Shown here piece by piece: positions 3,801-24,106 of a stretch of DNA of 64,000 bases. Within the stretch, counting starts at the first letter, position 1. Each line of letters opens with the position of its first letter. Source of the stretch: Minisyncoccota bacterium (lineage in GTDB: Bacteria; Patescibacteriota; Minisyncoccia; Phycocordibacterales; JAACPR01); the NCBI GenBank assembly GCA_041674225.1, contig JBAYWG010000001.1, positions 390,273 to 454,272 on the forward strand, in the 5' to 3' direction. A program made the translations under genes and the position numbers. The notes beneath the pieces were generated by a model, which searched no databases, was not told the DNA's origin, and saw nothing but the letters and a program-made list of their open reading frames with translations.

Positions 3801-4685
3801 ATGAAAAAAATGAAAATAGTAACTCACGCTGGAAGCTTTCATTTGGATGACTTGTTTGCAATAGCAACTATTTCTTTAATTTATCCAGACATTGAGATTG
3901 TGCGTTCGAGAGATAAAAGTGAAGCGGCAAGCGCTGATTTTGTTGTGGATGTAGGAGACGTGAATGATACAGAAAAAAACAGATTTGATCATCATCAACC
4001 AGGTGGGGCAGGGGTTAGAGAAAATGGTGTTCCATATGCAAGCTTTGGTTTAGTTTGGAAAAAATTTGGAACTGAAGTTTCTGGCGGAGATGCTCGTGTA
4101 CAGGATTTGGTTGATAAAAAAATGGTTCAACCAATTGATGCTGCTGATAACGGTTTCAATATGTATCGTGAAACTAAATCAGGACTATCTCCTTATCTTC
4201 TAGACAACGCTTTCAAGGCTCTGACACCTACGTGGCGAGACGAAGGAACTGTAGATGACACTTTCACTAGAATTCTACCTTTAGCTCGAGAAATCTTATT
4301 AATGGAGATCAAAAAAGCTAAATATTTCTTTGAGGATACTGAAATTGTGAAAGAGGCTTATAAAAATGCGCCTGATAAAAGAATTATTGTTTTGGAACAT
4401 CCTTTGGCTTGGAAATCTGTTATCTCTAGAAAAAATGAACCAATTTATGTTATTCATCCAAATCAAATGACAGGGGAGTGGATTGTCGCTTGTGTGCGAA
4501 AGACCCCACGTTCTCATGAAAATAGAAAACTTTTGCCACAAGCGTGGGCAGGAAAAAGAAAAGAAGATTTGGAAAAAATCACGGGTGTAGAAGGTGCAGA
4601 GTCTTGTCATAACAAAAGATTTATCGCAACAGCGTGGAGTAAAGAAGCTGCGGTGAAATTGGCTGAGATTGCTGTGAAGAATTAA
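3801..4685 (+). CDS. MYG1/UPF0160 family metal-dependent hydrolase
   Basis: N-terminal THAGSFHLDD motif. Start placed at the ATG immediately after tRNA-Pro, because the ORF-track start at 3750 lies inside the tRNA. Confidence 0.7.
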   Translation: MKKMKIVTHAGSFHLDDLFAIATISLIYPDIEIVRSRDKSEAASADFVVDVGDVNDTEKNRFDHHQPGGAGVRENGVPYASFGLVWKKFGTEVSGGDARVQDLVDKKMVQPIDAADNGFNMYRETKSGLSPYLLDNAFKALTPTWRDEGTVDDTFTRILPLAREILLMEIKKAKYFFEDTEIVKEAYKNAPDKRIIVLEHPLAWKSVISRKNEPIYVIHPNQMTGEWIVACVRKTPRSHENRKLLPQAWAGKRKEDLEKITGVEGAESCHNKRFIATAWSKEAAVKLAEIAVKN

Positions 4686-4806
4686 ATTACGGTCACATTG
4701 ACTTTTTGTATTTTTGTGATTTAATTGCGCGTGGACAGCTCTAGGTTATTTCAATTAGAATCTAGGGAATTTCTGTTTTTTGAAACTCAACCCAATTTAA
4801 AACGGG

Positions 4807-5910
4807 ATGACAAGCAATACAGTTAAAAATGAGGAGTCGGAACCTCTCAAAATATTTCCGGAGAAGACTCGAGTCGCTATGCCATTTAAACCCAGGCCGG
4901 ATCAAATATTGGTCTTGCTAATGTTGGAAACTGAAGAAGGGAAGATTGTTTTTCCTAATCTCAATTCAGATGACATCACCTACATTGAAAAGGAGAAGGA
5001 TGGAGTTCTGTATCTCAAGGAAAAGGAGTGTTTGTTTGTGGGCTGTGGAAGAGATCCGCGATTCGATCCAAACGCACATCCAAATAATCCTTGGGACTCT
5101 GCATCTTCGATGATGACCAGACATTTGGGATTATTTAAAAAATACCCAATATGGAGGAAAGTCATTGAAGAGGTCCGCAGTGCCTACAGGGGAAGACAGT
5201 TAGAGTCGGGCGAGATTGCTTTGATGGCTGACGCCCTTTATGGTTCTCATGGTGGACTCGTTGGAGATGCTTCGGTTATTCAGTGGGTGAAAACTGCGTA
5301 CGATGCCGAAATTCATTTCGGTGACAAAAAACAGTTGAAACCATTGGATAGATGGGGTGTGCTCGATATTCTCAAACAACAAAATTCTCCGAGTGCTGAG
5401 TGGTTTGAGATGATGATCAGTGAGTGTCAGTCTCATTACGAAAGGAGTAAGAATGATGCGAAGACAGTCTTTGTGGGTCTTGAACCCAAAAAATTCAATC
5501 ACCCGATTCATGGAGAATTGAATCTGTACATCGTTTCGACCGACAATGAGAAGGTGGCATCGTATGCGTGGAAGAATACGGACGCTGATATTCTAGTTGT
5601 TTTGAAGAGCAATGGACAGGTCGCAATTCAAACTAAAAGAGAGAGGCTTTTTGACATGACGGAAGTCTGGCAAAAAATTGTTGAACTTGAACCAAAAGGA
5701 AGAGGCTCTGAATTGTGGGATTTATATTCCGGTCCGAGGATGATTCTCAACGGTTCTCGATCTAATCCCAATACTCCTCCGACGAAGCTTACTCTGGAAG
5801 AAATAGCTGAAATTATTCAGAACGTTCTGACAGGGAAAGAATACCTCGACAGAATGAGGCCGAGTGTTGGAGACATGCTTGAAGCTGCTCTATCTGGGTT
5901 TGGAAGTTAA
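4807..5910 (+). CDS. Hypothetical protein (367 aa)
   Basis: Long uninterrupted ORF, locally GC-richer. No recognisable motif. Confidence 0.5.
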   Translation: MTSNTVKNEESEPLKIFPEKTRVAMPFKPRPDQILVLLMLETEEGKIVFPNLNSDDITYIEKEKDGVLYLKEKECLFVGCGRDPRFDPNAHPNNPWDSASSMMTRHLGLFKKYPIWRKVIEEVRSAYRGRQLESGEIALMADALYGSHGGLVGDASVIQWVKTAYDAEIHFGDKKQLKPLDRWGVLDILKQQNSPSAEWFEMMISECQSHYERSKNDAKTVFVGLEPKKFNHPIHGELNLYIVSTDNEKVASYAWKNTDADILVVLKSNGQVAIQTKRERLFDMTEVWQKIVELEPKGRGSELWDLYSGPRMILNGSRSNPNTPPTKLTLEEIAEIIQNVLTGKEYLDRMRPSVGDMLEAALSGFGS

Positions 5911-7714: not shown

Positions 7715-8467
7715 ATGTTCGAAAAATTCTTAGAAGAATTGGGTCTAAGTGATAAAGAGTCAAAAGTTTATTTAGCATTGTTGGAAGTTGAAAATGATTC
7801 TGTAATCGATTTATCTAAAAAAACAGATATTAACAGAACAACAATTTATCCAGTTTTGGAATCTCTTTCTAAAAAAGGTTTGATTAGTGAAATTAAGGTT
7901 GATAAAAAAGTTCGTTATGCCGCTGAATCTCCTGAGAGATTAGAAACTTATGTTGAAAGAAGAAAAATTCAATTAGAGGAGCAAGAAAGAAAGTTGAAAG
8001 ATATTATTCCGCAGTTGAAGAGTGTGCAGCGGGATAAAGGAGAAAAACCAATCATAAAGTTTTATGATGGTAAGGAAGGAATAATGTCAGCTATAAAAGA
8101 ATATTTTGGACCAAATCCGAAAGGTGGCGATGCTTATTTTTTATATGATTATGATTTAGTTAATGAAATTTTTACCCCACAAGAGATTAAAACTGCCCAA
8201 AATAATAGAAGCCAAGCGAAGATAAATGCATTTTCTTTTTATGCGAGTAAAAACGAGTCACTATCAAACAGTGAGTCATCATCAAGAATTCAAGTTGATG
8301 GTGATAAATATCCAATCTATTGTGATATTGGAGTATATGATGATTATGTAAGAATTCACACTTTAAATAAAAAAGTTTCTGCTATATATATAAAAAACAA
8401 GGATATCGCCGAAACTTTTAAGTCTTTATTTAGAATCGCTTTCGATAATTACAAAAGTAACAAGTAG
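7715..8467 (+). CDS. TrmB-family winged-helix transcriptional regulator
   Basis: N-terminal LSDKESKVYLALLE...TIYPVLESLSKKGLI wHTH typical of the TrmB family. Confidence 0.65.
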   Translation: MFEKFLEELGLSDKESKVYLALLEVENDSVIDLSKKTDINRTTIYPVLESLSKKGLISEIKVDKKVRYAAESPERLETYVERRKIQLEEQERKLKDIIPQLKSVQRDKGEKPIIKFYDGKEGIMSAIKEYFGPNPKGGDAYFLYDYDLVNEIFTPQEIKTAQNNRSQAKINAFSFYASKNESLSNSESSSRIQVDGDKYPIYCDIGVYDDYVRIHTLNKKVSAIYIKNKDIAETFKSLFRIAFDNYKSNK

Positions 8468-8482
8468 TCTAGAAAGAAAAAT

Positions 8483-8518
8483 CTCCCTCGCAGCAAAAGC
8501 TGGAGGGAGTGTTTTTTT
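8483..8518 (+). terminator. Rho-independent terminator
   Basis: CTCCCTC-loop-GAGGGAG hairpin followed by a T7 run. Confidence 0.6.
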
Positions 8519-8959
8519 AAAATTGGACTTATTTAGATATCTCTAAAAATTTGTCCAGAAAACATTTTCAATTTTTAATCTCCAAAGTCGCCCATAATGA
8601 ACTCCTTTCTGTTTTGAAATTTGGTGAACGACCAATTAGTGCTGAATCAACACCCCCACCCGAAACCCTATGCAAGGCTCGGGTGGGGGCGCATCATCTG
8701 CGTGTCTTAGCCGTGCATAGGTCACCTCCTTTCAGTTGAACTATCTGATTGAAATCCTGGTCTAGAAAGACAAGGCAATCAGATTTCTAAGATAGTATAG
8801 CAAATTTTAGATAAATGTCAATACATATAAACAGTTTTGTCTTATATTTCTTTTAAAACACGGCTTATTTATGGTTTTTTTGTTAAAAATGTTTATTTTG
8901 ATTAAATAATTTTCATTGACTTTTAAGTAAAAACGTGATAATATAAGAGAAGAAATTAA

Positions 8960-9062
8960 GTAGCCATAGCCACAAGAGCCTTAATATTAAGACCCTTCTG
9001 GCTATGGCTACCGAGTGGTATATCCGAGCTACACGTCAGTCCATCGTGAAAAACAGGACTCG
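8960..9062 (+). ncRNA. Structured leader element X (copy A): 13-bp hairpin plus conserved GAGUGGUA...GUGAAAAACAGGACUCG tail
   Basis: GTAGCCATAGCCA...TGGCTATGGCTAC perfect hairpin. A paralogous copy at 17794-17895 carries a compensatory C:G to A:U change. Confidence 0.5.
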
Positions 9063-9094
9063 TTCGGCTATCGACAAGAGCCACCAAGTACATT

Positions 9095-9439
9095 ATGAAG
9101 ACATATTTTTCGAACGATTCGAACCCCTCAGTCACTGTTTACTACTGTATCCCTGAGACAGTATTCGAAATAAATTTATTTGGATGTTTCTATATCGCAG
9201 TGGTAAAAAAACCAGAAGGGTTCATATTCTGGTGGGAAAATCCAGACCTGAGTCATCTTGGCCCTGACGATGAACTCCTCGAGGAACACAATCCTAGTGA
9301 ATGTGTTGAGCTTCCTGATGAATTCCTAAGGAAGCTTGAGGAAAAGCTGCGAAATGTTGACCATGTGGACAACCTTTTGTGGGATTCATCTTCGGAACAA
9401 TGGAAAAGCCTTCCGTCTGTTTTGCAGTTTGAAGATTAA
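9095..9439 (+). CDS. Hypothetical acidic protein (114 aa)
   Basis: ORF immediately downstream of element X. Start context AGTACATTATGAA is shared with the next ORF. Confidence 0.4.
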   Translation: MKTYFSNDSNPSVTVYYCIPETVFEINLFGCFYIAVVKKPEGFIFWWENPDLSHLGPDDELLEEHNPSECVELPDEFLRKLEEKLRNVDHVDNLLWDSSSEQWKSLPSVLQFED

Positions 9440-9620
9440 TAGTGGTACTCCACTCGGTTCATAGATTAATACCGTAAAATCTACTTGGAGAACTTCGGTT
9501 CTCCTCTCAACTGAGCTTGCAACAATTTGATAGTTGTAAGTTCACAGAGAGTAAAACGTTCAGACACTCGTTATAAAACAGTCTGTGCAAGTCAAAGCAG
9601 CAATTGACACCTAGTACATT

Positions 9621-10130
9621 ATGAAACCAATTATTGCCTTCTATGAAATGCTCTGCGATCTTATTGAGACCGGAGTGAAAGGAGCTGGTACCGGCAGCTA
9701 TCCTGCAAGGAAGATGGAAATTGATCTTATTAGCTTGTCTGGTAAGGCTCGTGCTTCCAAAAACCCTGTTAGCTGGGTTGGTGCTGACAATGCAAACATC
9801 CTTTCCATGATGTTGCGTTGTATCAACGACAACGAAAACTCAAGCGGCAGACAGTGGGAACTCAGTGTTGAAACTCTGATGATCTCTGCATTCGGAGATC
9901 TGTCCGCCGTTCGTGATACAGAAGCGCTTCAAACTTTCGGACGGTTGAGAAGGGTGTGCTTCATGGACAAGAAAGAACTCTTTCTCTGGAGTCGTAAGAA
10001 AACTGAGAGAGAAGACGGAAGTGCTGTCATTGTGCTGCACGTCAGTGATCTACGAGCTTTTCAGTCTCTGATTCACGTCAGTGGCTCGAAAGGAAACCTC
10101 GAAGATGGTTTGATGATCATCAAGCCTTAA
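9621..10130 (+). CDS. Hypothetical protein (169 aa)
   Basis: ORF downstream of element Y. Protein-like composition. Confidence 0.45.
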   Translation: MKPIIAFYEMLCDLIETGVKGAGTGSYPARKMEIDLISLSGKARASKNPVSWVGADNANILSMMLRCINDNENSSGRQWELSVETLMISAFGDLSAVRDTEALQTFGRLRRVCFMDKKELFLWSRKKTEREDGSAVIVLHVSDLRAFQSLIHVSGSKGNLEDGLMIIKP

Positions 10131-10210
10131 TTGGAAACGCTAAAGGAGAACAGCGTACAACTCCGGCTCTGCATACACTTGCAGAGTCTTTTTATTTTAA
10201 GATATTTAAA

Positions 10211-10241
10211 TAAAAAATAGCCCCTTTTGCAAAGGGCTATT
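10211..10241 (-). terminator. Rho-independent terminator (bidirectional hairpin)
   Basis: TAGCCC-TTTTGCAAA-GGGCTA hairpin flanked by an A-run on the + strand, which is a T-run on the - strand. Confidence 0.55.
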
Positions 10242-10253
10242 AAGTTTAACTTT

Positions 10254-11414
10254 TCAGTTAATCAACCAACTTAACGCCGGTTTCTTGTGGAATATTCTTT
10301 CTGCGATTACCGCATTAGTATATTCTTTGTCTTCGGTGACTTCTTGAATTATCTCTATCCAGTCTGGAATTTGCAATTCATGCTCCAGATTGGTTAGTTC
10401 TATTTCAAGCATCCCAATCTCAACACTCGGATCAGTACTTGTATTGGAGTTTTTGAAGACATCCAGTTCCAAATATTGATTTGCCCAAAGCATACAGTGT
10501 CGAGTTTTGTTTACCGGACATGTGTCTGGTTTAATCATTGAAGACATGAGCTCGAACTCACTTTCTCCGATGATTCTCTCAACTTCGAGTCTTTGGCCTG
10601 GGCCGTGATCGCGTTTTTCAGTCATGAAGTAGGTGTAGAAACCATCGTGACCGCGTTTGCGAATACGGATTTCCGCCTTATCACTTCCTGTTGTTAGATA
10701 AATCTGCTCGATGTCGATTGAGACAGCTTCCTTGGGAATGTTCATTGGATTGAACTTTACTAAGAATTTTCTTTCTCTTTCGACAGGAATCGGCACCCCA
10801 ATAACTGCACAAACTTCTTGATAAACTCGGTGGAGTTTTTCTTGAAAATCGGTACTGTTGTCGACGACTCTCATGTGAGGATGACCAACCCAGGCTTGCT
10901 GAGTTCTCTTATCAAGATCTCTCGCTTGTTGGGGAGTCTCGTGTCTCGCTGAATTGTTTGCCAGAGTGTAGAAATCCTCAGCACCTTCTGCGGCTGTGAC
11001 CATGTGAATGACTGCGTCATATCTCGCATGACTAGCACTCACTGGATTGAGTTCTCTTGTTTGCAGCAGAGACAAGTAGTCTTCTTTTTCCATGTATGCA
11101 CTCCCGTCGGGAATACCACGGTCGTAGATGACTACAATCTTTTGATCTGCTGGAAGATTTTTTGCAATCTCCAAAATGTTATTTTCGATGCTCAAACTTA
11201 TGTTGAGAATCGCATTTTGAAGCATGTCTCCCGAGATTGAATTTTTGCCTGGCATTACTCCAGCGTTGATACATAGGGTCGCCATCTCTGGGATGACAAA
11301 AACCACATGATTTTCAATCTCTTCAATTTTCTCTCTCAAGAAAGAGAGGCCACTAGACTTTCCTCCGCAAGGGCCACCGGTCAGGACTATTCGGTATATG
11401 TTTTTGGGTTGCAT
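10254..11414 (-). CDS. P-loop AAA-type ATPase fused to a C-terminal CYTH (triphosphate tunnel) domain
   Basis: Walker A TGGPCGGKSS at the N-terminus. The C-terminal half starts ERERKFLV and has the alternating acidic/basic strands of CYTH. Confidence 0.65.
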   Translation of the reverse strand: MQPKNIYRIVLTGGPCGGKSSGLSFLREKIEEIENHVVFVIPEMATLCINAGVMPGKNSISGDMLQNAILNISLSIENNILEIAKNLPADQKIVVIYDRGIPDGSAYMEKEDYLSLLQTRELNPVSASHARYDAVIHMVTAAEGAEDFYTLANNSARHETPQQARDLDKRTQQAWVGHPHMRVVDNSTDFQEKLHRVYQEVCAVIGVPIPVERERKFLVKFNPMNIPKEAVSIDIEQIYLTTGSDKAEIRIRKRGHDGFYTYFMTEKRDHGPGQRLEVERIIGESEFELMSSMIKPDTCPVNKTRHCMLWANQYLELDVFKNSNTSTDPSVEIGMLEIELTNLEHELQIPDWIEIIQEVTEDKEYTNAVIAERIFHKKPALSWLIN

Positions 11415-11530
11415 AGATTGGTTTAGTTGGTTGTGAATGAACTGCTACTCTTCACTGATTATGTTTAAAAGGTTCGTTGTTTTCTAGTCTTTCTGCGTTG
11501 AGTCAAATTTTTTAGACTAAAATGTCTAAA

Positions 11531-12202
11531 CTATTCTTCATCAGTTGTATTTAAAAAATATTCTGCAAAAAAGTGATCTTTCTTGTTTTCTTTAACAAGT
11601 TTTAATATCTTTTTCGCTCCAGGTAAAATGTTTTTGCTATCTATTTCATCAAATGTTCCCCAGAAGCATTCTCCAACTGTATTCCCGTCTTCTAATTCTC
11701 CAGTCACTTCTGTTCCAGAGAAGACATGGCAAAGAAGGTGTGTAACTAATTCTGTTTCATCGTGCACAGCAATATAAACATCGCCCCTGTGTTTTAGTTT
11801 TGCAGATAATCCAGATTTTTCTTTCAGTTCTCTTTCTGCCGAATCTTTTATTCTTTCCTCGAGGTGAATTTTCCCATATGGAAAAGAAACAAAATTAATA
11901 AAGGGCGCTCTTTTTTGACGGTAGAGTAAATACTTTCCATCTTTTTCAATTACCATTGATGTAACAATTTTGGGTTGAGTTCTTTCTTCAAATGTATCAA
12001 AAGACATCCTGCTGATTAGGTGTTTTCCTGCAGATGTCAGACTGTATGTTTTATCTTTTGAAATAATCAAACCAAGTTTTGTTAGGGAGTTTAGGTGGTA
12101 CACAAAAACATTTCCCTCGACTTCTTTATCTTTTAGATCTGAGTAACGGATCTTTTTCTGTAGAGAAAGTTTTTTAAGGATGTCTTTTTGAATTTCGTGC
12201 AT
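11531..12202 (-). CDS. Winged-helix + Nudix hydrolase domain protein
   Basis: Nudix box GKIHLEERIKDSAERELKEKSG, N-terminal HTH-like segment. Confidence 0.7.
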   Translation of the reverse strand: MHEIQKDILKKLSLQKKIRYSDLKDKEVEGNVFVYHLNSLTKLGLIISKDKTYSLTSAGKHLISRMSFDTFEERTQPKIVTSMVIEKDGKYLLYRQKRAPFINFVSFPYGKIHLEERIKDSAERELKEKSGLSAKLKHRGDVYIAVHDETELVTHLLCHVFSGTEVTGELEDGNTVGECFWGTFDEIDSKNILPGAKKILKLVKENKKDHFFAEYFLNTTDEE

Positions 12203-12348
12203 GGTGAAATATTAACATATAACAAATTAATTCTAAAAACTCACGATTTTGTATTATAAATAAAGATCATTTTGGCAAAGTTTGTGTGTAACAATTTAAT
12301 ACGGATTCTGTAATTAATTATTATTTTTGAGGGTTATTTGATACAATC

Positions 12349-13086
12349 TTGTTAATTATGAAAAATAAAATACTTGAGCAGATTGGTTTATCAAAGAATG
12401 AGAGTGAGATTTATTTAGCACTTTTAGATTTAGGACCTTCAAGTATTTCAAAAATCTCTGAGAAAACCGCCATCCACCGACCACTTATTTATAAAGCACT
12501 ACCTGAACTTTTGGAGAAAAAATTGGTTAGCCAAACTCAGAAAGGGAAAAATGTGCTTTATGTGGCGGAACCACCAAATAGATTAGAATCAATTTTTGAT
12601 GAATTAAAATATCAATTCTTTGAACTTTTACCTGATCTAGAAGACTCATACTCAAGCAACAATAAAAAACCGAAAATTAGATTTTTGGAAGGGAAGGATG
12701 GAACTAAAAGAGTTTTTGATGATGTTGTGAGAAGTTTGAATAAAGGAGATACTTTTTATAGATACACTTCAAACAAAGATGGAAAAGAGAAAAAAGATCG
12801 ATATGTTCCGAGAATTTATTGGACTATGCGTGACGCTAAAAAATTGGAGAGGCAAGTGATCACAAACGAGAAGACTGCAAAAGCAAAAATAGAAAAAATT
12901 GATAGATTTGTGAAAGGAATGCCAGAAGATTTTGGACCTTTTGAACACAACATTACAGAAATTATTTATGGAGACAGAGTTTCTTTTATAGACTACAACT
13001 CAGACACCGCGATGATTATTGAAAGCAAACCGATTGCTGAGTTTCAAAAACATATCTTCAAGACATTTTATAAGAAGTTAAGTTAA
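12349..13086 (+). CDS. TrmB-family transcriptional regulator (paralog of 7715-8467)
   Basis: LSKNESEIYLALLDLGPSSISKIS...LIYKALPELLEKKLV wHTH. Similar length and architecture to the first TrmB-like gene. Confidence 0.6.
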   Translation: MLIMKNKILEQIGLSKNESEIYLALLDLGPSSISKISEKTAIHRPLIYKALPELLEKKLVSQTQKGKNVLYVAEPPNRLESIFDELKYQFFELLPDLEDSYSSNNKKPKIRFLEGKDGTKRVFDDVVRSLNKGDTFYRYTSNKDGKEKKDRYVPRIYWTMRDAKKLERQVITNEKTAKAKIEKIDRFVKGMPEDFGPFEHNITEIIYGDRVSFIDYNSDTAMIIESKPIAEFQKHIFKTFYKKLS

Positions 13087-14436
13087 TTACTCGTGCCACC
13101 TTCGTTCTGCTCGAATTGGTGCATCTGCAACTAGTTTTATGCGAAGGTCTGAAGGAAGAAAATCAAGGGTGAATGATCTTCCTTCGATTACAATCTTGCT
13201 TTCAGAAGTGTCTCGGATTTTTGATATTTCCCTAGCTGAAAATTCTATAACTTCTTTCTGATATTTTTTTGCGATGTCAGGGATTTTATTTTCAACCCTG
13301 CTTTCTCGGAGTGCTTGTCCGTAAACTTTTTTGATATCTAGATTCGTGTGAAAGAGTCTTAATTCTCCTGATGTGCTCTTGTAGTACATGTTTTTGAAGA
13401 TATTTTTTGTGAATTTTATTTTTGCTAGGTTTAGTAAAGTGAGGTATCTGAAAATGTCTCCCATTGAGAAGATTTTTGCGTTTAGTTTTTTTGCCAATTC
13501 TTTTGTGGTTGAGCTTTTTCCGACTCCACTTTTTCCTTCTAGAGAAATTATTTTGGTCTCCTTTTTTATGTCAGTCTCGATTATTTTGATAACATTTTTT
13601 ATTCCAATTACTTTTCCTGTATCTACTGTGATTGTTTTCTTAGGTTTTTGTATTCTCAATCCTTTGTTTGAAAGATTTTCTTTATTTACTTTATCTATCT
13701 GATCATCTCTGTGATCTCTTTCAATTATTGAATGTAGTATTTCACTTACCCCATGTGATTTTATTCTATGAGTTATTTTCTCTTTTCCTATTTCTGAGAC
13801 CACGCAATCTTTTATTATTGTATTCAGTTCAGCTGTTTTAAATTCCGAGAAGTATTTGTCACCAAAATCTCCGAGACCAGGAACTATATAACCTTTTTCG
13901 TCTAAACATTTATCTAGTTGTCCGATTATTATTTTAACTTTTGGATAAAGAGTTAAGATTTTATTTACTCCCTCTGGTGAGGCTAAGATGTTTGCTACGA
14001 CTATTTTTTCTTCTGCGACATTTTTCTTTAAACATCTTTCGATTGCGTCGATAATAGTGTTTCCAGTTGCTAACATGGGATCAACTATGATGACAAAGTT
14101 GTTTTTGTTTATTTTTCCCTCTTCAAAATCAACCTCTGTTTCTAGTGTTTCCTCGTTTCGCTTTGAGCTTAGGTGGTAATAATTTTTTATTTTAAATTTC
14201 TTTAGGCTCGGGATAAAAGCGAGTGCAGATCTCCAGGGAAGAATAACGACCGTGTTATTTTTTTCTATATGATTTAAAGATTCTTTAATTATTTTGTCTG
14301 TAATTATTTCAGAATTTTCTCTAAAGATTTTTCCTTTGGTTTGTTCATGAAAAGATTTGTTGGGATATCCGGCTCTTAAAATTTTAAATGCGGTGTTGAA
14401 TTTTTTATCTGGAGTTACTATTTTTATTTTCTTCAT
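13087..14436 (-). CDS. Uracil phosphoribosyltransferase fused to cytidylate kinase
   Basis: N-terminal half has DPMLATGNT and YIVPGLGDFGDKYF (UPRT). C-terminal half has P-loop ISLEGKSGVGKSS and cmk-like sequence. Confidence 0.75.
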   Translation of the reverse strand: MKKIKIVTPDKKFNTAFKILRAGYPNKSFHEQTKGKIFRENSEIITDKIIKESLNHIEKNNTVVILPWRSALAFIPSLKKFKIKNYYHLSSKRNEETLETEVDFEEGKINKNNFVIIVDPMLATGNTIIDAIERCLKKNVAEEKIVVANILASPEGVNKILTLYPKVKIIIGQLDKCLDEKGYIVPGLGDFGDKYFSEFKTAELNTIIKDCVVSEIGKEKITHRIKSHGVSEILHSIIERDHRDDQIDKVNKENLSNKGLRIQKPKKTITVDTGKVIGIKNVIKIIETDIKKETKIISLEGKSGVGKSSTTKELAKKLNAKIFSMGDIFRYLTLLNLAKIKFTKNIFKNMYYKSTSGELRLFHTNLDIKKVYGQALRESRVENKIPDIAKKYQKEVIEFSAREISKIRDTSESKIVIEGRSFTLDFLPSDLRIKLVADAPIRAERRWHE

Positions 14437-14460
14437 TTAATTTTATTATAGTTTATTTTT

Positions 14461-14512
14461 TCCGTTTCGTCCTTTTGGACTCATCAGGCAAAGAACTTAC
14501 CTTGCGACAGTG
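14461..14512 (-). ncRNA. Hammerhead ribozyme, type III (HHR-1)
   Basis: Minus-strand read: CACUGUC|GCAAGG-UAAGUU-CUUUGC (stem I) CUGAUGAG UCC-AAAA-GGA (stem II) CGAAAC GGA. Full catalytic core, GUC cleavage triplet. Confidence 0.8.
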
Positions 14513-14581
14513 GACGGATGGAACGTGCATCCGTCAATTTGTTTCAGTTTCAGGAAGTTTTTTCTCCCTAGTGCGCCTCGA

Positions 14582-14962
14582 TTAGCCGTGGCCGATGACC
14601 GGGACGCGACCGATCTCCTCTCTCTCCTCTTGGGCTCGTTGCCTTTCGCGGGCTTCTTCGTGGCCGAAAGAGCGGAGATAACTTTCGTCATGCTCTCGCT
14701 GCTCTTGCTCGTAGGATGCCCGAAGCGGTGTTCGGATCAAGGATGAGAGTTCGTCTCTGACCTCTTTGGGCCATGATTTCCTGATCCGCAGGAGGTCGCC
14801 GATGAATCTCTCAGCGTCATTGATATCGAGGTGTCCTCGCATCATTCGGCAGAGGTCTTCGGAGGTGTTTGGGTGTTGTCTGTTGGTCGGCATGGGTCGT
14901 TTGGGGCGTGGAGTTGGTGGGGACTGTTTCGTCTTGCTTCTACACTTGTAGAAGAGACTCAT
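14582..14962 (-). CDS. Hypothetical small charged protein between two hammerhead ribozymes (coding status uncertain)
   Basis: 126-aa ORF. Its 5' end overlaps HHR-2, so the true start is probably an internal Met. Confidence 0.3.
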   Translation of the reverse strand: MSLFYKCRSKTKQSPPTPRPKRPMPTNRQHPNTSEDLCRMMRGHLDINDAERFIGDLLRIRKSWPKEVRDELSSLIRTPLRASYEQEQREHDESYLRSFGHEEARERQRAQEEREEIGRVPVIGHG

Positions 14963-14990
14963 CAGGCGAGATACTTATCTCGCGACAGAA
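14921..14990 (-). ncRNA. Hammerhead ribozyme, type III (HHR-2)
   Basis: Minus-strand read: UUCUGUC|GCGAGAU-AAGU-AUCUCGC CUGAUGAG UCU-CUUCUAC-AAGU-GUAGAAG-CA-AGA CGAAAC AGUCC. Stem III is CUG/CAG. Confidence 0.8.
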
Positions 14991-15036
14991 GACGGATGGA
15001 ACGTTCATCCGTCAATTTGGTTCAGTTTCAGGAAGT

Positions 15037-15360
15037 TTATTCTTCCTCTGCGCCGGTGCGAATGTACCCTCTTCGCTCGAGTTCCTTCAGGCAGATATGC
15101 ATTTCCCTCGGACTACCTGCTTGAAACAGGACTCGCATTTGTTTGCGGGTTAGTCGGGCAGGGTTTGCTAGATTTGCTTCCGCTCTTTTCATTAGGCGAT
15201 TGAAGGCTTTCTCGCAAGCTGGCGGTGCGTGGCGGTCTTTGGCCTTTGGTGGTTCGGTTTGCTCGCGCATCTTGGCTTTTTGTGCGGAGATTATGCCGTT
15301 GTAGCGTGGTACGCAGGTGCAGGATGTGGTCATGGGTAGTTTGGGGTTTGGGGTTAACAA
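15037..15360 (-). CDS. Hypothetical small protein, possible HTH at C-terminus (coding status uncertain)
   Basis: 107-aa ORF upstream of HHR-2 on the minus strand. Confidence 0.3.
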   Translation of the reverse strand: MLTPNPKLPMTTSCTCVPRYNGIISAQKAKMREQTEPPKAKDRHAPPACEKAFNRLMKRAEANLANPARLTRKQMRVLFQAGSPREMHICLKELERRGYIRTGAEEE

Positions 15361-15747
15361 AGAACAAATTTATTTTTTTGTAAATTGTAAGGTCTAATCC
15401 AACATATTTATAGTCTAGTCAAATTGAGTCAATTGTTTTTATCAGAAGTGGTATTTTTATGTGCAGGGGGTTCAGGCAATATTATAAGTAAAGTATTTGA
15501 AAATATTTTTTATTTATGGTCAATGTGTACAGAGATGGGAGCGAGGTGAATTTAGTGGCTTTAAATATAGCTATTATTTGATTTTTCAGTGTAATTTTTA
15601 GTTTCAAAAAAACTTTTTTATACAACTTTTTTAAAAAAGTAGCAAAAAAATATAAATTCTGTCTAAAATTTGAAACATTATAAAAATGTAAATATGGCTT
15701 AAAATATGATAAAAAATGATATCTAAAATTAGAAACGACAAAAACGC

Positions 15748-15776
15748 TTGACAAAAAATGAAAATGGGTATATACT
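15748..15776 (+). promoter_or_regulatory. Consensus sigma70-type promoter (TTGACA-17 nt-TATACT)
   Basis: Perfect -35 TTGACA at 15748-15753, 17-nt spacer, -10 TATACT at 15771-15776, in an AT-rich region with upstream direct repeats. Confidence 0.6.
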
Positions 15777-15837
15777 ACTTTCAAACCTAAAACAAGCACA
15801 CAACATTCAACAACCAGCCAATAGAAAGGAGGAGGGC

Positions 15838-15888
15838 ATGATTTACCAAATCTACCCCGATGGGACCATTGTGGTCGTCCGCCGATAG
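15838..15888 (+). CDS. Candidate 16-aa leader peptide (MIYQIYPDGTIVVVRR)
   Basis: ATG 5 nt downstream of the strong SD AAGGAGGAGGG, about 55 nt from the predicted TSS. Stop TAG. Confidence 0.3.
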   Translation: MIYQIYPDGTIVVVRR

Positions 15889-16342
15889 GCCGGAATAGTG
15901 GGTTCGTTCAAACCGAATCTGCTCCCTTAAAATAAGATCTTCCACACGGTCTTATTTTAAGGTAGCGGAAGTTACCTAGTTCTTTAAAAGATAAAAGATA
16001 GCCTGCACCTTAATCAGAGTATTGCTAGTACTTTGATTAAGGCGCAGGACATTAACAGTTGTTTGGCGGCCTAAAAATAGGGAAACAAAGTTTCCCCTTT
16101 CGGCTGATCACCGATTGAACTACCCAGGAGGTTTGTGTCATGTTTGAACACGAGCAAGAAAGGTGGAGGAAGATGTTCACAATTTAAAGAACATCTGGAA
16201 GGTTGGTAACCGTAAACTGTTGTGGTGCATGTAAGGGTGCCACGATTGTCCTTTGGACAATCAAAAGTCAATGCCTAATCAATATTAGGTACACACGTCT
16301 ACACGAAGTGATGGAATGCTTAACCAGCTCCATGCACTTCGT

Positions 16343-16396
16343 CCTGTCGCGAGATGCATGTCTCGCCTGATGAGTCCAAAAGGACGAAACAGTTGC
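16343..16396 (+). ncRNA. Hammerhead ribozyme, type III (HHR-3)
   Basis: CCUGUC|GCGAGA-UGCAUG-UCUCGC CUGAUGAG UCC-AAAA-GGA CGAAAC AGUUGC. Shares stem I with HHR-2 and stem II with HHR-1. Confidence 0.85.
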
Positions 16397-16524
16397 ATTT
16401 TTAAAATATAAAATCTTTGTACTGCATTCCGTGTTCAATTCTTTTGGAAGATAAACACCACTCAATTTAATGTGGCCCCCAAAATTGGACACAGTGCTCG
16501 GTATAAAGATTTATACCAACAGTT

Positions 16525-16540
16525 CTTTAAATAAAAATAA
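16525..16540 (+). repeat. 16-nt direct repeat CTTTAAATAAAAATAA (copy 1 of 3)
   Basis: Exact 16-mer, also present at 17307 and 17776. Confidence 0.7.
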
Positions 16541-17252
16541 TCATTTTCTTGGAACTCCGCAGTCACAAAATTGAAACTAAAATTTGGTTTTAATTTTGTG
16601 GCTGTGGAGGGCCCGATAGACTCGCAAGAGTTGATAGGATAGTTGCCAAAAGACAATTACTATCCGGGTGTGTAAAAACATCTAAATCTCCATCTTGAAA
16701 CTAGTGTGCTCCGGGAGGGGTATCCAAACATTAGTGTAGAGAGCTGTAGAAGTCTGCAAACTTCGAAAGCAGTTAGAAGCGTTCAGGGCTGCAACCCAAA
16801 AACGTGGAAAGCCAAGTGTGCATCAGGCACGGCTCGCAAGGCTGTGTGCAGTGCACCCCTCTTTCTTGGCATGTCTTACAACTATATAAAGTTGCTAACG
16901 GCATAAAGAGGGAAATCAATCATCGTAGGGCTGTGCCACAATACCAGAGAATTGGGAAAACTCTGGGTGAAAAGTGGAAGAGGAACGCCACCTCAAATGG
17001 AAAAAGCCCCGGCCAGGGAAATATCCAAGAAGATGATTGAGGATAAAGGGTGCGCACACACCCTAAAACAATTCGGTGAGATTCCGAAATGTGTGGTCAA
17101 AAGACAGCTACCGTTAGCAGCGGTGGTCGGCTCGCAAGAGTATTGCTGTCATTGAGAGTATGTGAGCTTCGGCTTCTGACCTTTGTACTCTCTCCCAAAT
17201 TTTTCGGTTCGGAACTAGGTTCAACCGGGTTGTAAGTTATCCAAAAACTTTC

Positions 17253-17302
17253 TCTGTCTCGAAATGTAATTTCGACTGATGAGCTCAAAAGAGCGAAACA
17301 GA
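17253..17302 (+). ncRNA. Hammerhead ribozyme, type III (HHR-4)
   Basis: UCUGUC|UCGAAAU-GUA-AUUUCGA CUGAUGAG CUC-AAAA-GAG CGAAAC AGA. Stem III is UCUG/CAGA. Confidence 0.85.
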
Positions 17303-17306
17303 TGAT

Positions 17307-17322
17307 CTTTAAATAAAAATAA
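17307..17322 (+). repeat. 16-nt direct repeat CTTTAAATAAAAATAA (copy 2 of 3)
   Basis: Exact copy, immediately 3' of HHR-4. Confidence 0.7.
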
Positions 17323-17775
17323 ATTCTCTGCACCGAATTGCATTTAAGTTTTTTAAATTCAGTTCGGTGCAGGGAGTTGTTGCGACCCCATAGTACGTGA
17401 GTCAAAGAGGGATAAATGATACCCTCGCGAAAAGATCAGCTGCAACATGCTAAAAGAGCTTAGGAATTTATGCTCGATCGAAAAATTTCCAATCATATGA
17501 CCAAGGTCGAAAGACGCTGTTACATCTCCCAGAAGAGATGGTGCGACGAGGCAATCTAGAACGCCTTTTCAATCGCATTACCTAATGCCCTTCAACCGGC
17601 GGTTTATATTACTCGAGATTAGATCTCTTGCGGATATAGATTGGTTAACAAACGACAGGTTAGGTATCTCGTGTTGAATCGGGACATCATCGCAACAATT
17701 TTTCGCACTTTTTCAAAAAAAGTGCACTTCATTGAGCTTACGAAATTTGATATTCGCAAGTTCATAGAGTTTGTA

Positions 17776-17791
17776 CTTTAAATAAAAATAA
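17776..17791 (+). repeat. 16-nt direct repeat CTTTAAATAAAAATAA (copy 3 of 3)
   Basis: Exact copy, immediately 5' of element X copy B. Confidence 0.7.
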
Positions 17792-17793
17792 AA

Positions 17794-17895
17794 GTAGACA
17801 TAGCCAAAGGAATTTTTAAATAGAATTTCTTTGGCTATGTCTACTGAGTGGTAGATGAGCTGCACATTGGTCCGTTTGTGAAAAACAAGGACTCG
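17794..17895 (+). ncRNA. Structured leader element X (copy B)
   Basis: GTAGACATAGCCA...TGGCTATGTCTAC hairpin plus UGAGUGGUAGAU...GUGAAAAACAAGGACUCG. Paralog of 8960-9062. Confidence 0.5.
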
Positions 17896-17924
17896 TCTGA
17901 CGAACGTATCGTCACCCCAGACTT

Positions 17925-18245
17925 ATGAGCAAGCACCACTATCGTAAACCTGCTGCTAAACCTGTGTGTCCTTGCGGACATGCTACGACCGATGCTCTCT
18001 GGGTGTTAGACATCCAAGGAGACCGACCTATCAGGGTTCATCGGCCATGCGGTCAGGCGATCTTGAAGAACGCGCCGAAAGGAACGCAGGGCAAAATTCG
18101 TCCTTCCCGCGAGCTCAAAGAGATTCACAAGAAGCAGAGGTACGAGCGCGAGCTCTCCTCCAGTTTCTGGAACTCCAAGCTTGAAGGTGTCAAAGGCAAG
18201 TCTTTACAAGACTTGGTGAAGACCGCTCCCGACAGGCAGTCCTGA
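17925..18245 (+). CDS. Hypothetical basic Cys-containing protein (106 aa)
   Basis: ORF directly after element X. CPCGH...PCGQ suggests a small zinc-binding fold. Confidence 0.4.
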   Translation: MSKHHYRKPAAKPVCPCGHATTDALWVLDIQGDRPIRVHRPCGQAILKNAPKGTQGKIRPSRELKEIHKKQRYERELSSSFWNSKLEGVKGKSLQDLVKTAPDRQS

Positions 18246-18381
18246 TGGATTGGTTGAAACAAGTTTCTCTAGCTCTTTTCCTTTCAAAAAAGAGTCGCAC
18301 TGTCAGCGGATAATAATCAACCCCGCTAGACTAAGAGTTTGCAGATTTCTTAAATCTGCACTTACTTGAGCTTGCAACAAG

Positions 18382-18780
18382 ATGTTGTTGGTTCATAGAG
18401 TGTTAGTTCTTTCAAAAACAAAACAAAAAAATATGATCATCTCAAATGCATTTTCACTCAACATGTTTGAAACCCTCGAAGGAGAAATTCTCAGCAGAGA
18501 GCTTAGTGTCACGGAAATCTCGAAAGAGCAGGCTGTTGAACTTTTAACAGACCCTGAGCTTGGAGGAGTAGATTCAGCTGTTGGACATGCCGACACTGCT
18601 GCGCTTTTTTCTACGATTCTCGGAATCGAGATCCCGTGTGAGCGCAAGACGATTCAACTCAACCCTGAAAATGGTTGGCTTATTGTCGGGCAGTATCATG
18701 GACCACGTCTTGAAGAAGGAAGTACTACACTTCCGGAGGGTGCCAGTATTCGCTGGTACGAAATCGAGATTAAGTCTTGA
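18382..18780 (+). CDS. Hypothetical protein (132 aa; may start at internal Met 18439)
   Basis: ORF downstream of element Y copy B. Confidence 0.45.
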   Translation: MLLVHRVLVLSKTKQKNMIISNAFSLNMFETLEGEILSRELSVTEISKEQAVELLTDPELGGVDSAVGHADTAALFSTILGIEIPCERKTIQLNPENGWLIVGQYHGPRLEEGSTTLPEGASIRWYEIEIKS

Positions 18781-18789
18781 GAGATTATT

Positions 18790-19077
18790 ATGAATTTGGA
18801 AGAAATTTCAAAGCTCTATGATGATCCTCAAGATGCAATGAGGATTTTACAAACATCTGTTGAAGGAAAACACAGATATTTCCGAAACGAGAAAGCTTTC
18901 GAAAGGTTTCTGAGAAAAGAACAAGACTCATATCAGCGTCGCAAGACTGCTGGTGTTTCAAGTCCGGTTTCACTTCTTGAGAATACTCTCGACTCTTCTC
19001 CTTTAAGGAACGAAACTTTGCCCCCGGGCAGTAATGGTTTCAATGTGATTATCTGGCAGGAAACTTCCAAAGGATAA
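18790..19077 (+). CDS. Hypothetical protein (95 aa)
   Basis: ORF tightly following the previous one (10-nt gap), followed by a terminator. Confidence 0.45.
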   Translation: MNLEEISKLYDDPQDAMRILQTSVEGKHRYFRNEKAFERFLRKEQDSYQRRKTAGVSSPVSLLENTLDSSPLRNETLPPGSNGFNVIIWQETSKG

Positions 19078-19085
19078 TCATTGAA

Positions 19086-19112
19086 CCCTGCAATAAAATG
19101 TAGGGTTTTTTC
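19086..19112 (+). terminator. Rho-independent terminator
   Basis: CCCUGCA-AUAAAA-UGUAGGG hairpin followed by a T6-7 run, 9 nt after the ORF stop. Confidence 0.55.
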
Positions 19113-19127
19113 TTTAAATTTATACAA

Positions 19128-19158
19128 AGCAAAAAGCCGGCGGAGCCGGCTTTTTGCT
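19128..19158. terminator. Bidirectional Rho-independent terminator
   Basis: GCAAAAAGCCGGC-GGA-GCCGGCTTTTTGC, a perfect hairpin with A/T runs on both sides. It lies downstream of hup on the minus strand. Confidence 0.7.
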
Positions 19159-19229
19159 TATTTACTTAAAATTCTGTGAAGATAAATTTAATAACTTAAA
19201 ATTTAACCGTTTTGAACTTGTACGTATAT

Positions 19230-19502
19230 TTATTTAACAGCTTCTTTCAAAGCTTTTGCAGCTCTAAACTTTGGAGTTTTCATAGCTGGAACTTTGATAG
19301 CTTCACCTGTTCTTGGGTTTCTAGCTGTTCGGGCTGCTCGTGTTTTAGCTTCAAAAATACCGAATCCTGCAACTGAAACTTCTTCTCCAGATGTTAAAGA
19401 TTTGATAATTGAATCAAAAACAGCGTCAACAACCTTTTCTGCTTCTACCTTTGTTGTACCTAATACTTCATGTACCTTTTCTACAATGGCTGCTTTATTC
19501 AT
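19230..19502 (-). CDS. hup: DNA-binding protein HU
   Basis: 90 aa. MNKAAIVEKV...GFGIFEAKTRAARTARNPRTGEAIKVPA matches the HU/IHF fold signature. Confidence 0.9.
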   Translation of the reverse strand: MNKAAIVEKVHEVLGTTKVEAEKVVDAVFDSIIKSLTSGEEVSVAGFGIFEAKTRAARTARNPRTGEAIKVPAMKTPKFRAAKALKEAVK

Positions 19503-19659
19503 ATATGTTGGTTGTATTAATCAATCCGTAAAAAACGGGTTTGTTAACCGATAACCGCTTAAAACGACTTTGTTATTAAGCTGGAAATAATTATATAAAA
19601 CAAGGGTTTTATAGCAATAGAGCCACGAGTACACCTTGTTTATAACTTTTTGTCAAAAA

Positions 19660-21171
19660 TTATCTTGCAACTTCAATAACTCTGTTTTCTCGTATCACTG
19701 TAACCTTGATTTCCCCAGGGTATTTTAGGTCTTTTTCTATTTTCAGGGCTATATTCCTAGCTAAATTACGCGCTTCTAAATCTGAAATTTCTTCAGGATT
19801 TACAAAAATTCTTATTTCACGTCCTGCTTGTAGGGCGTAAGATTTTTCTACTCCTTTAAATTCATTGGCTATAGCTTCCAAATCATTTAAGCGTTTTAAG
19901 TAGTTTTCTGTGTTATCTCTTCTGGCTCCTGGACGACTTCCAGAAATAGAATCCGCAACTTGAACGATAATTGATTCAGGTGTTTCATAAGGGTATTCTT
20001 CGTGATGTGCTTGCATAGCTTTTACAACAGATTCATCTGCTCCAAATTTTTGTAAAATTCTGCGCCCGATTTCTACGTGAGTTCCGGCAATTTCGTGATC
20101 AACTGCTTTTCCAATATCGTGAAGAAGTGCACCAGCTTTGGCTACTCGCACATCTGCACCTATTTCTTCAGCAATCATTCCTGCAATGTGAGACATTTCG
20201 ATTGAGTGTTGCAAAACATTGTGACCATAACTCGTTCGAAAGTGAAGTCTTCCTAAAATAGAAATAATTCGTGGGTCTAAATTAAAAATCCCACATTCAT
20301 AAGCGGCTTGTTCTCCTTTTTCAATGATTATTTTATTTATAGATTTCTTTGCTTTTTCAACGCATTCTTCGATTTTTGCAGGTTGAATTCGTCCATCTAG
20401 AACTAATTGTTCCAAAGCTATTTTTGCAATTTCACGACGAACTGGATCAAAAGAAGAAATTGAGATTGTCGCTGGTGTATCATCAATAATTAATTCAACA
20501 CCAGTAGCTCTTTCAAAACTTTTTATGTTTCGACCTTCTTTTCCAATGATTTTTCCTTTTATTTCGTCAGAAGGAAGAGTGACACTGCTAGAAAAAATAT
20601 CTGAAGATACAGAGTTCCCAAGTCGGTGGATAGCTGTGGTTATAATATCGCGAGCTTTTGCTTCCAATTTTTCTTTTCCACTGATATCCATTTTTTGTAA
20701 ACGAATCAAAATATCTTCGGATTGTTCTTTTTCAAGATTTTCAATTAGTTCTTTTTTAGCATCTTCTTTTGAAATTTCTGCAATTTTTTCTATAGAATCA
20801 ATTCTTTCTTTTTCAAGTTTCTTTAATCTGTCTTCAATTTCTTCAATTTGAGTCTCTTTTATTTTAATCTCTTCCGACAATTCATCCAAATCAGTCTGTC
20901 TTTTGTCTAGATAACTTTCTTTATTTATCAGTCTAGCTTCTGTTTTCTCTACTTTTTCTTCAAATTCAATAGCTGTGTCTTTGGCTTCTTTAATAATATT
21001 CTGAGCTTCCTCTCGTGCTGAGACCATCATTTCCTTTATTTCTAGCTCCATTGAGCCTCTTTTACCCAGAGAAATTATGAATCGCAAAAACCATCCCAGA
21101 GCTATTCCGGCTAATCCTGCTGCCATTGCTATTATTAATACTATTAGTAGAGACATGATTTTTAGCGCCAA
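19660..21171 (-). CDS. rny: Ribonuclease Y
   Basis: N-terminal TM helix, coiled-coil, KH domain (GKIIGKEGRNIK) and HD domain (HDIGK), 503 aa. Confidence 0.9.
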   Translation of the reverse strand: MALKIMSLLIVLIIAMAAGLAGIALGWFLRFIISLGKRGSMELEIKEMMVSAREEAQNIIKEAKDTAIEFEEKVEKTEARLINKESYLDKRQTDLDELSEEIKIKETQIEEIEDRLKKLEKERIDSIEKIAEISKEDAKKELIENLEKEQSEDILIRLQKMDISGKEKLEAKARDIITTAIHRLGNSVSSDIFSSSVTLPSDEIKGKIIGKEGRNIKSFERATGVELIIDDTPATISISSFDPVRREIAKIALEQLVLDGRIQPAKIEECVEKAKKSINKIIIEKGEQAAYECGIFNLDPRIISILGRLHFRTSYGHNVLQHSIEMSHIAGMIAEEIGADVRVAKAGALLHDIGKAVDHEIAGTHVEIGRRILQKFGADESVVKAMQAHHEEYPYETPESIIVQVADSISGSRPGARRDNTENYLKRLNDLEAIANEFKGVEKSYALQAGREIRIFVNPEEISDLEARNLARNIALKIEKDLKYPGEIKVTVIRENRVIEVAR

Positions 21172-23991: not shown

Positions 23992-24044
23992 TTGATCAGA
24001 GTTATTCAGTGGAATCTGTGTGAAACTTCGTAAGGTGTTACACA

Positions 24045-24097
24045 AAAAATAAAAGACTCACATTCGACAATGCCGAATGTGAGTCTTTTATTTTTTG
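24045..24097. terminator. Bidirectional Rho-independent terminator (rsmE / tig)
   Basis: AAAAGACTCACATTCG...CGAATGTGAGTCTTTT 16-bp hairpin with T-runs on both strands. Confidence 0.7.
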
Positions 24098-24106
24098 TAT
24101 TGCAGT

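Follow-up and report, generated by a model that had tools for sequence, protein, structure and literature searches.

The segment at 8960-9062 of the 64-kb stretch of DNA analyzed here (the window, whose positions are used throughout, on the + strand unless stated) is most likely one copy of a modular mRNA leader that stands ahead of small accessory-gene cassettes in bacteria of the candidate phyla radiation (CPR, or Patescibacteria), the host being itself a low-GC CPR bacterium whose housekeeping proteins are identical to those of a "Candidatus Paceibacterota" metagenome-assembled genome (MAG). That this segment, element X, is a structured cis-acting leader is a conclusion we hold with high confidence. 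The leader contains a compact pseudoknot, lies at a fixed distance from the start codon of the open reading frame (ORF) behind it, and has either a promoter or a hammerhead ribozyme as its alternative upstream neighbors. As to what it does, we favor a combined reading, in which it stabilizes and insulates the message and also provides a platform for translation initiation, and we regard that reading as evenly poised between right and wrong.

The initial annotation, made from the sequence alone, had placed two paralogous copies at 8960-9062 and 17794-17895, and these coordinates are borne out. At full length, copy A spans 8955-9097 and copy B 17789-17927; the similarity between them is limited to ~105 nt (~8957-9065 vs 17790-17897), with diverged flanks. 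A covariance model built here from homologues of the leader (R1) scored copy A at 113.2 bits (E 6e-27) and copy B at 94.9 bits (E 2.7e-22), and found no further full-length copy on the + strand of the window. A third, diverged copy at 9508-9623, which resembles the 3' part of the leader, scored 35.1 bits (E 4.5e-07), and the same variant recurs in four homologous loci (L004, L010, L011 and L038). The R1 match at 24033-24173 (20 bits) was rejected as a leader, being a terminator-like hairpin. Copies A and B fold far more stably than shuffled sequence, with folding-energy z-scores of -6.5 and -9.0, respectively. Because the only open frame of copy A holds a stop in copy B, and because the copies and homologues differ by frame-breaking indels of 1-2 nt, element X is non-coding, and we rejected the protein-coding origin that would have refuted the initial annotation. 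Four features escaped that annotation: the third copy, the fact that the long hairpin is optional, the pseudoknot and the association with hammerheads. The parts of the three leaders in the window are as follows.

8955-9097, +: leader copy A at full length, from 5 nt before P1 through the AUG (R1)
8960-9011, +: P1 of copy A, a 13-bp perfect lower stem with an imperfect upper stem (fold, covariation)
9015-9032, +: P1b of copy A, a weak short helix GUGGU / GCUAC (minimum free energy fold, tentative)
9032-9060, +: H-type pseudoknot core of copy A (pair counts, 28 distinct cores)
9032-9035 with 9045-9048, +: S1 of copy A, CACG with CGUG
9038-9042 with 9056-9060, +: S2 (P2) of copy A, AGUCC with GGACU
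9049-9055, +: A-rich loop L3 of copy A
9061-9063, +: conserved CGU of copy A
9066-9069 with 9079-9082, +: P3 of copy A, GGCU with AGCC
9508-9623, +: third, diverged leader (R1)
9555-9558 with 9569-9572, +: S1 of the third leader, AACG with CGUU
9561-9565 with 9581-9585, +: S2 of the third leader, CAGAC with GUCUG
9591-9595 with 9604-9608, +: P3 of the third leader, GUCAA with UUGAC
17789-17927, +: leader copy B at full length (R1)
17794-17844, +: P1 of copy B, ~23 bp (fold)
17863-17913, +: pseudoknot core and P3 of copy B
17863-17866 with 17877-17880, +: S1 of copy B, CACA with UGUG, both sides changed relative to copy A
17869-17873 with 17889-17893, +: S2 of copy B, GGUCC with GGACU
17899-17902 with 17910-17913, +: P3 of copy B, GACG with CGUC

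Both full-length copies open with the 13-bp perfect stem GUAG(C/A)CAUAGCCA / UGGCUAUG(G/U)CUAC described in the initial annotation, and the C-G to A-U double change reported there is genuine, the same pair being U-A, C-G or A-U across homologues. The P1 hairpin as a whole reaches ~23-26 bp in copies A and B. Family-wide it comprises 19 pairs with 95.5% of cells paired, and 15-16 of these pairs change on both sides; RNAalifold, run on the homologues, returned 24 pairs, 19 of them with compensatory changes and 19 of them in P1. For P1 and P2 together, pairing reaches 91.3% of cells, compared with 76.7 +/- 0.9% in shuffled sequence and at most 44% when the partners are slid. P1 is nevertheless optional, as L003, L030 and L047 lack it and keep the 3' core.

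The tail of the element had been read as a GUCC/GGAC stem alternating with a CGAGU:ACUCG switch helix. The first half of this claim stands and the second does not: the alternative helix has 60% of cells paired, which is the level found in shuffles (58.4 +/- 1.8%), and was rejected. The stem, a 5-bp helix that we call P2, covaries at all five of its pairs with 98.6% of cells paired, and its sequence is essentially free, at least 10 different stems having been found (among them AGUCC/GGACU, AAUCC/GGAUU, UAUCC/GGAUA, CAGAC/GUCUG, CAAAC/GUUUG, UAGGU/ACCUA, GGCCC/GGGCC, UGUUC/GAACA and UAAUC/GAUUA). As a control for selection bias, 240 kb were searched with the conserved unpaired nucleotides alone. 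This search yielded 28 distinct sites, and since 25 of the 28 have five of five P2 pairs, the pairing of P2 is no artefact of selection.

The loop of P2 in turn pairs with the 5' flank of the stem, (N)ACG with CGU(N'), to form S1. Over the 28 distinct cores, the G:C position of S1 is G-C in 24, A-U in three, G-U in one and broken in none, while the outer pair is A-U in nine, C-G in seven, G-C in three and unpaired in nine. All three leaders with ACA at this site, copy B included, carry UGU in the loop. The nested extension of P2 predicted by minimum free energy folding, in which ACG pairs with the 3' CGU, is broken in exactly these three variants and was rejected. Because S1 compensates while the nested helix breaks, the core is an H-type pseudoknot, showing both the loop-to-flank pairing and the compensatory changes by which such a fold is recognized. 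Its first loop is 2 nt long (UY), and its A-rich third loop ends in AAACA.

Beyond the pseudoknot, P3 is paired in 79.5% of cells, and three of its four pairs change on both sides (GCG/CGC with a variable fourth pair, GGCU/AGCC, GUCAA/UUGAC, GACG/CGUC and GCAC/GUGC). Strictly conserved and unpaired are the U of loop 1, AAACA, the 3' CGU and the CG in the P3 loop. A second pseudoknot, joining the 3' CGU to an ACG in the P3 loop, is suggestive from one independent change, the candidate pairing in the 9586/9597 variant being UGC with GCA. G-U pairs are common in the stems of the + strand transcript.

The initial annotation had proposed a search for more homologues and a test for covariation in an alignment, and both turned out in its favor: covariation is strong for P1 and P2, and DNA pattern scans, together with contigs encoding a downstream protein family (Fam169, described below), yielded ~34 distinct leaders in CPR MAGs and metagenomes, 22 of them full-length with R1 scores of 95-135 bits. 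A pattern scan of one genome per species gave two copies, L001 and L003, in the same Saccharibacteria MAG; the Bacteroidales match L002 was rejected as chance. The metagenome pattern scan returned 26 matches, about the number expected by chance, of which three (L023, L030 and L034) are real by context and R1 and the remaining ~23 were rejected as chance on the same grounds. The Fam169-encoding contigs added many further leaders. Phage genomes searched with blastn gave no leader match, and of four pattern scans of IMG/VR three were empty and the fourth gave three matches that R1 scored as chance.

Against Rfam 15, the whole window at gathering thresholds returned only four tRNAs, 8000-20000 and 8945-9100 at E<=10 returned only spurious miRNA or hairpin matches on P1, and a 156-nt query with lax filters returned no family, including riboswitches, RAGATH motifs and ribozymes. 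We found no description of the leader motif in the searchable literature, the hammerhead-associated (RAGATH) motifs compared being those in Rfam 15. Searches of the literature on Saccharibacteria, CPR and Patescibacteria for structured RNAs or hammerheads gave nothing relevant. We class the leader as a new RNA family, although its general kind, the structured mRNA leader associated with ribozymes, is known.

The leader also keeps a regular position relative to the gene behind it. In the window, three ORFs directly follow a leader.

9095-9439, +: opening ORF of module A, encoding 114 aa; no known family; AUG 34 nt past P2, without Shine-Dalgarno sequence
9621-10130, +: Fam169 ORF, 169 aa, with the third leader directly in front
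17925-18245, +: opening ORF of module B, encoding 106 aa, Cys-rich; no known family and no homology to the ORF behind copy A

The distance of about 30 nt given in the initial annotation corresponds to start codons 34 nt (copy A) and 31 nt (copy B) past the GGACU stem. In all 34 distinct leaders, with upstream in-frame TTGs discounted, the start codon that opens the ORF lies 31-38 nt past P2. The ORFs themselves encode small hypothetical proteins of 56-187 aa from mutually unrelated families. Between P3 and the start codon there are ~10-15 A/U-rich nt, and the regions from leader to ORF start have no Shine-Dalgarno sequence. In the host at large, one of 36 ORFs of at least 200 aa in the window has a Shine-Dalgarno sequence. 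Many host ORFs have a TATAAT-like -10 box 6-12 nt before their ATG, which suggests that leaderless mRNAs are widespread in this CPR host.

The initial annotation had also called the element riboswitch-like. On this account, the pseudoknot, possibly with P3, would be a putative small-molecule or ion aptamer that changes downstream translation. The fold is indeed conserved and aptamer-like, with covariation in both P2 and S1; its compact H-type pseudoknot, in which the third loop is A-rich and many unpaired nucleotides are invariant, resembles the aptamers of preQ1-I, SAM-II and guanidine-III in both size and style; the distance to the start codon is fixed; and the two conserved CGU triplets could vie for the single ACG. 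However, the downstream genes are unrelated small hypotheticals with no metabolic or transport theme, and operons carry several copies, one per cistron. A terminator scan found no + strand terminator in 8945-9100 or 17780-17930, there is no Shine-Dalgarno sequence to sequester, the helix between ACG and the 3' CGU is not kept when ACG mutates, and no Rfam riboswitch matched even at E below 10. With neither an expression platform of these kinds nor a functionally coherent gene set, we consider a riboswitch improbable.

The commonest gene behind the leader is Fam169, an uncharacterized family of 160-170 aa with 46 homologues and no Pfam domain, which stands directly behind the leader in L001, L030, L034, L038, L039, L040, L043, L045, L047, L053 and L057. 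Its start codon is fixed by the conserved N-terminus MKPI..FY, and its predicted structure (predicted local distance difference test score, pLDDT, 81.5) has only generic helical-bundle neighbors. This association raises the possibility that the pseudoknot and P3 are the putative site of a trans-acting regulator, for example Fam169, that would co-regulate all cassettes including its own gene, in the manner of the phage T4 gene 32 leader pseudoknot and ribosomal-protein operators. In keeping with an operator, the same sequence motif fronts many unrelated ORFs of one locus as well as Fam169, the element lies at the edge of the ribosome site, and Fam169 is found behind three of the six real leaders recovered from the DNA pattern alone. 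Most loci, however, were located via Fam169 homologues, so the association is partly an effect of ascertainment. We think a protein operator unlikely.

Upstream of the leader, two alternatives recur. One is a sigma-70-type promoter at a set distance, the other a type III hammerhead that borders the leader with its 3' end. Copy A has the promoter, with a predicted transcription start a few nt ahead of the leader, and the second island of the window holds four hammerheads.

8916-8944, +: sigma-70-like promoter of copy A, TTGACT, 17-nt spacer, TG before the second hexamer, TAATAT (consensus scan)
14459-14513, -: type III hammerhead
14921-14991, -: type III hammerhead
16341-16395, +: type III hammerhead (Rfam RF00008, 40.4 bits, E 4.8e-06)
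17251-17304, +: type III hammerhead (Rfam RF00008, 43.7 bits, E 5.6e-07), ~490 nt upstream of copy B

Promoters front copy A, L001, L003, L004, L010, L011, L023, L030, L039, L045, L047, L053 and L057. Measured from the ACG, they lie at -115 to -117 in L004, L010 and L011, as for copy A, and at -140 to -142 in L001, L023, L039, L045, L053 and L057. Hammerheads front leaders in L023, L034, L039, L040, L043, L045, L053 and L057, and stand immediately 5' of P1 in L034, L039 (twice), L043, L045 (twice) and L053 (twice). Both alternatives can occur within one operon: in L039, L045, L053 and L057 the order is promoter, leader, ORF, hammerhead, leader, ORF, and in three of these four an additional hammerhead, leader and Fam169 gene close the series.

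The four hammerheads of the window all fall below the Rfam gathering score, at 35-44 bits (E 6e-7 to 2e-4), and two are on the strand of copy B; the one at 16341-16395 probably belongs to the same transcript as copy B. The hammerhead at 17251-17304 is followed by a GAUCUUUAAAUAAAAAUAA motif and another long hairpin. The minus-strand pair sits in a 92-nt direct repeat with a spacing of 478 nt, and a uracil phosphoribosyltransferase (UPRTase)/cytidylate-kinase fusion gene has its ATG (14436) 23 nt past the end of the hammerhead at 14459-14513. Directly 5' of the hammerheads in L023 (reverse, ~860-915) and L034 (reverse, ~60-105) is the segment UUAUGGUYGGGAYRCCAUUGUAAAUKUCCC, which could form a small hairpin and may be an accessory domain of these hammerheads.

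The setting of the leader, in hammerhead-rich, cassette-like variable loci by tRNA or tmRNA genes and recombinases, also invites the idea of a new self-cleaving ribozyme class, or of a DNA-level site such as an attC-like site or a double-stranded DNA operator for a protein. Earlier new ribozyme classes were discovered via just such an association (PMC5737381), and the initial annotation had likewise offered a further ribozyme as a possibility. This suggestion finds no support: no Rfam ribozyme matched at any threshold, no catalytic core of the hammerhead, twister, twister-sister, pistol, hatchet or hepatitis delta virus-like type was found on element X at Rfam E<=10, and a second ribozyme would be redundant beside the hammerhead that often precedes the element. 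A DNA-level site fits no better, as G-U pairs are confined to the + strand and the element always points the same way with respect to ORFs and hammerheads. The ends of P1 (GUAGNCAUAGCC / GGCUAUGNCUAC) lack integron core sites (GTTRRRY / RYYYAAC), the islands of the window hold no integron integrase, and tyrosine or serine recombinases lie only several kb off, in some loci. The fixed start-codon distance speaks for a role in the RNA and its translation, against a DNA-level site. We regard both variants as highly improbable.

Under the combined reading, the leader would receive a defined 5' end from either a sigma-70-type promoter or self-cleavage by a type III hammerhead, and would then run through an optional P1, the pseudoknot, the conserved CGU and P3, and an A/U-rich stretch to the start codon. 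Hammerheads would cut long operon transcripts into single-gene mRNAs, each with a leader of the promoter type. By the Rfam consensus and established topology, the cleavage site of a type III hammerhead is close to the 5' end of the ribozyme itself. The body of the ribozyme therefore stays on the downstream product, so a processed cistron would start with a 5'-OH and the hammerhead, followed by a spacer, P1, pseudoknot, P3 and AUG. The newly made 5' end would be capped and insulated by P1, which would protect a 5'-OH or 5'-triphosphate from decay and shield the remaining leader from upstream sequence. The pseudoknot and P3, ending at -31 to -38 from the AUG and just 5' of the expected 30S footprint, would be a sequence-specific platform that governs 30S loading at a start without Shine-Dalgarno sequence, either as a docking or standby element or as the operator of a trans-acting protein. 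Strictly conserved unpaired nucleotides combined with tight AUG spacing point to specific recognition coupled to initiation.

The protective half of this scheme might suffice by itself, with the hairpins and pseudoknot blocking 5'-to-3' decay or serving as RNase III sites and having no part in initiation. P1 places a long, near-perfect duplex next to the new 5' end, and the host encodes RNase Y. Exonucleases, moreover, can be stalled by mechanically stable pseudoknots that have A-rich loops, as in viral exonuclease-resistant RNAs (xrRNAs). Yet P1 is dispensable in the loci that keep the core without it, and a stabilizer would need neither the tight AUG spacing nor sequence-specific nucleotides. 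A role purely in stability or processing therefore seems to us quite improbable.

Several observations weigh against the combined stabilizer and platform reading. Predicted start-site accessibility does not gain from the native leader (0.539 vs 0.528 when shuffled), the structure model of Fam169 gives no hint of RNA binding, and the strictly conserved unpaired nucleotides would also fit a ligand pocket. On the structural side, P3 pairs less completely than P1 or P2, and P1b is tentative because only 62-66% of its cells are paired in homologues. Upstream, the promoters are consensus matches only, the hammerheads score 35-44 bits, below the Rfam gathering score of 48.5 with the exception of one in L053 (49.9), and copy B has neither a recognizable promoter nor an adjacent hammerhead.

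A bolder version of the platform idea is that the pseudoknot and P3 constitute a new bacterial initiation device, a portable, sequence-specific 30S landing pad that is perhaps ligand-gated, with hammerheads standing in for promoters at the RNA level and renewing the leader ahead of each cistron. We put this forward as a speculative proposal that is unlikely to be right. If true, it would make long-leadered cassette mRNAs translatable in a host without Shine-Dalgarno sequences whose genes look largely leaderless.

Other hairpins accompany the leaders. A second conserved hairpin family, H2 (UGAGCUU...AAGUUCAYAGAG), shows some compensatory changes and occurs at three places in the window as well as in L004, L010, L011 and L038.

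9512-9544, +: H2 hairpin of the third leader (9512-9550 as a member of the H2 family)
17733-17770, +: H2 hairpin UGAGCUU...AAGUUCAUAGAG, just upstream of copy B
18360-18398: H2 hairpin

In leaders of second genes H2 takes the place of P1. The gap at 9440-9550 is filled by four hairpins, H2 being the last, at the intercistronic spot that a hammerhead takes in other operons, and this could represent a different processing element. The listed ORF at 18382-18780 overlaps an H2 hairpin with its first 17 codons, and its translation probably begins only at the ATG at 18433 (MIISN...). Its product has matches to phrog_5063 and to the STIV_B116-like family. A further motif, G(U/A)(U/A)CUUUAAAUAAAAAUAA, occurs three times (16522-16609, 17304-17378 and 17773-17844), each time ahead of a different long hairpin with + strand G-U pairs, the third being P1 of copy B. 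A AAGUUCUUUAA-type spacer also follows hammerheads in L039, L043 and L045. At 15748-15776 is a near-consensus promoter (TTGACA, 17-nt spacer, TATACT), behind which ~1.5 kb (15748-17250) have no long ORF, several hairpins and a hammerhead. The only ORF there has 16 codons and a strong AAGGAGG Shine-Dalgarno sequence at 15839. The transcript here may be long and either non-coding or extensively processed.

The leader loci look like variable or integrated regions, with recombinases, genes for tRNA or tmRNA, or a PemK toxin gene as neighbors. Array borders include a tmRNA gene fragment (1549-1631) and a large serine recombinase (4524-5849) in L045, tyrosine integrases in L057 (581-1687) and L040 (4902-5808), and a PemK toxin in L053 (6638-7027), which would fit integrated mobile elements. 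A TrmB-family regulator gene adjoins the leader-cassette block in the window, L010, L038, L052 and L053, lying on the opposite strand in L052. The cassette block between the TrmB-family and CYTH-domain genes is syntenic in the window (7715-8467 and 12349-13086) and L038 and, judged by its AAA_28 gene, also in L010; the number and identity of cassettes in the TrmB/CYTH block vary.

Among known systems, the operators of T4 gene 32, S15 and S4 resemble the leader in placing a compact pseudoknot by the ribosome-binding region of an A/U-rich start. They differ in having no sequence similarity to it and in controlling a single gene via its own product, whereas the leader is reused before many unrelated genes. 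The preQ1-I, SAM-II and guanidine-III riboswitches share its length (~35-45 nt), its H-type fold and an A-rich loop that likely lies in the groove. Unlike them, the leader has no model match, coherent regulon or expression platform, and occurs in multiple copies per operon.

The function of bacterial hammerheads is a long-standing question, and a leader found behind either a promoter or a hammerhead gives it a testable model, in which ribozymes would split the transcript of an operon into mRNAs of one gene apiece, each headed by a standard, structured leader. In prophage regions, hammerheads have been described in clusters that flank single genes, with a proposed role in processing polycistronic RNA (Perreault et al. 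2011, PMC3088659), and our model extends this proposal. In both cases, several hammerheads on one strand stand between small uncharacterized genes, in regions that look mobile; the earlier clusters concern ribozymes only, a conserved downstream leader and interchange with promoters not being described there.

The leader would also be a natural counterpart to the RiboJ insulators of synthetic biology, and is in that sense a candidate portable expression part as well as a promising entry to translation initiation in CPR/Patescibacteria and mobile cassettes. RiboJ combines the satellite tobacco ringspot virus (sTRSV) hammerhead with a 23-nt hairpin ahead of the ribosome-binding site, and its ribozyme strips upstream RNA so that every transcript carries the same structured leader (PMC8794103). 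Here, too, a hammerhead can directly precede a stable hairpin of the 5' untranslated region (L034, L039, L043, L045 and L053). In the window itself neither A nor B stands directly behind a hammerhead: A has a promoter there, and B has its closest hammerhead 490 nt upstream. In contrast to RiboJ, moreover, the CPR leader is natural, uses a type III hammerhead and a ~50-nt sequence-conserved hairpin, has no Shine-Dalgarno sequence to expose, adds a conserved pseudoknot and a second hairpin, and can have a promoter in place of the ribozyme.

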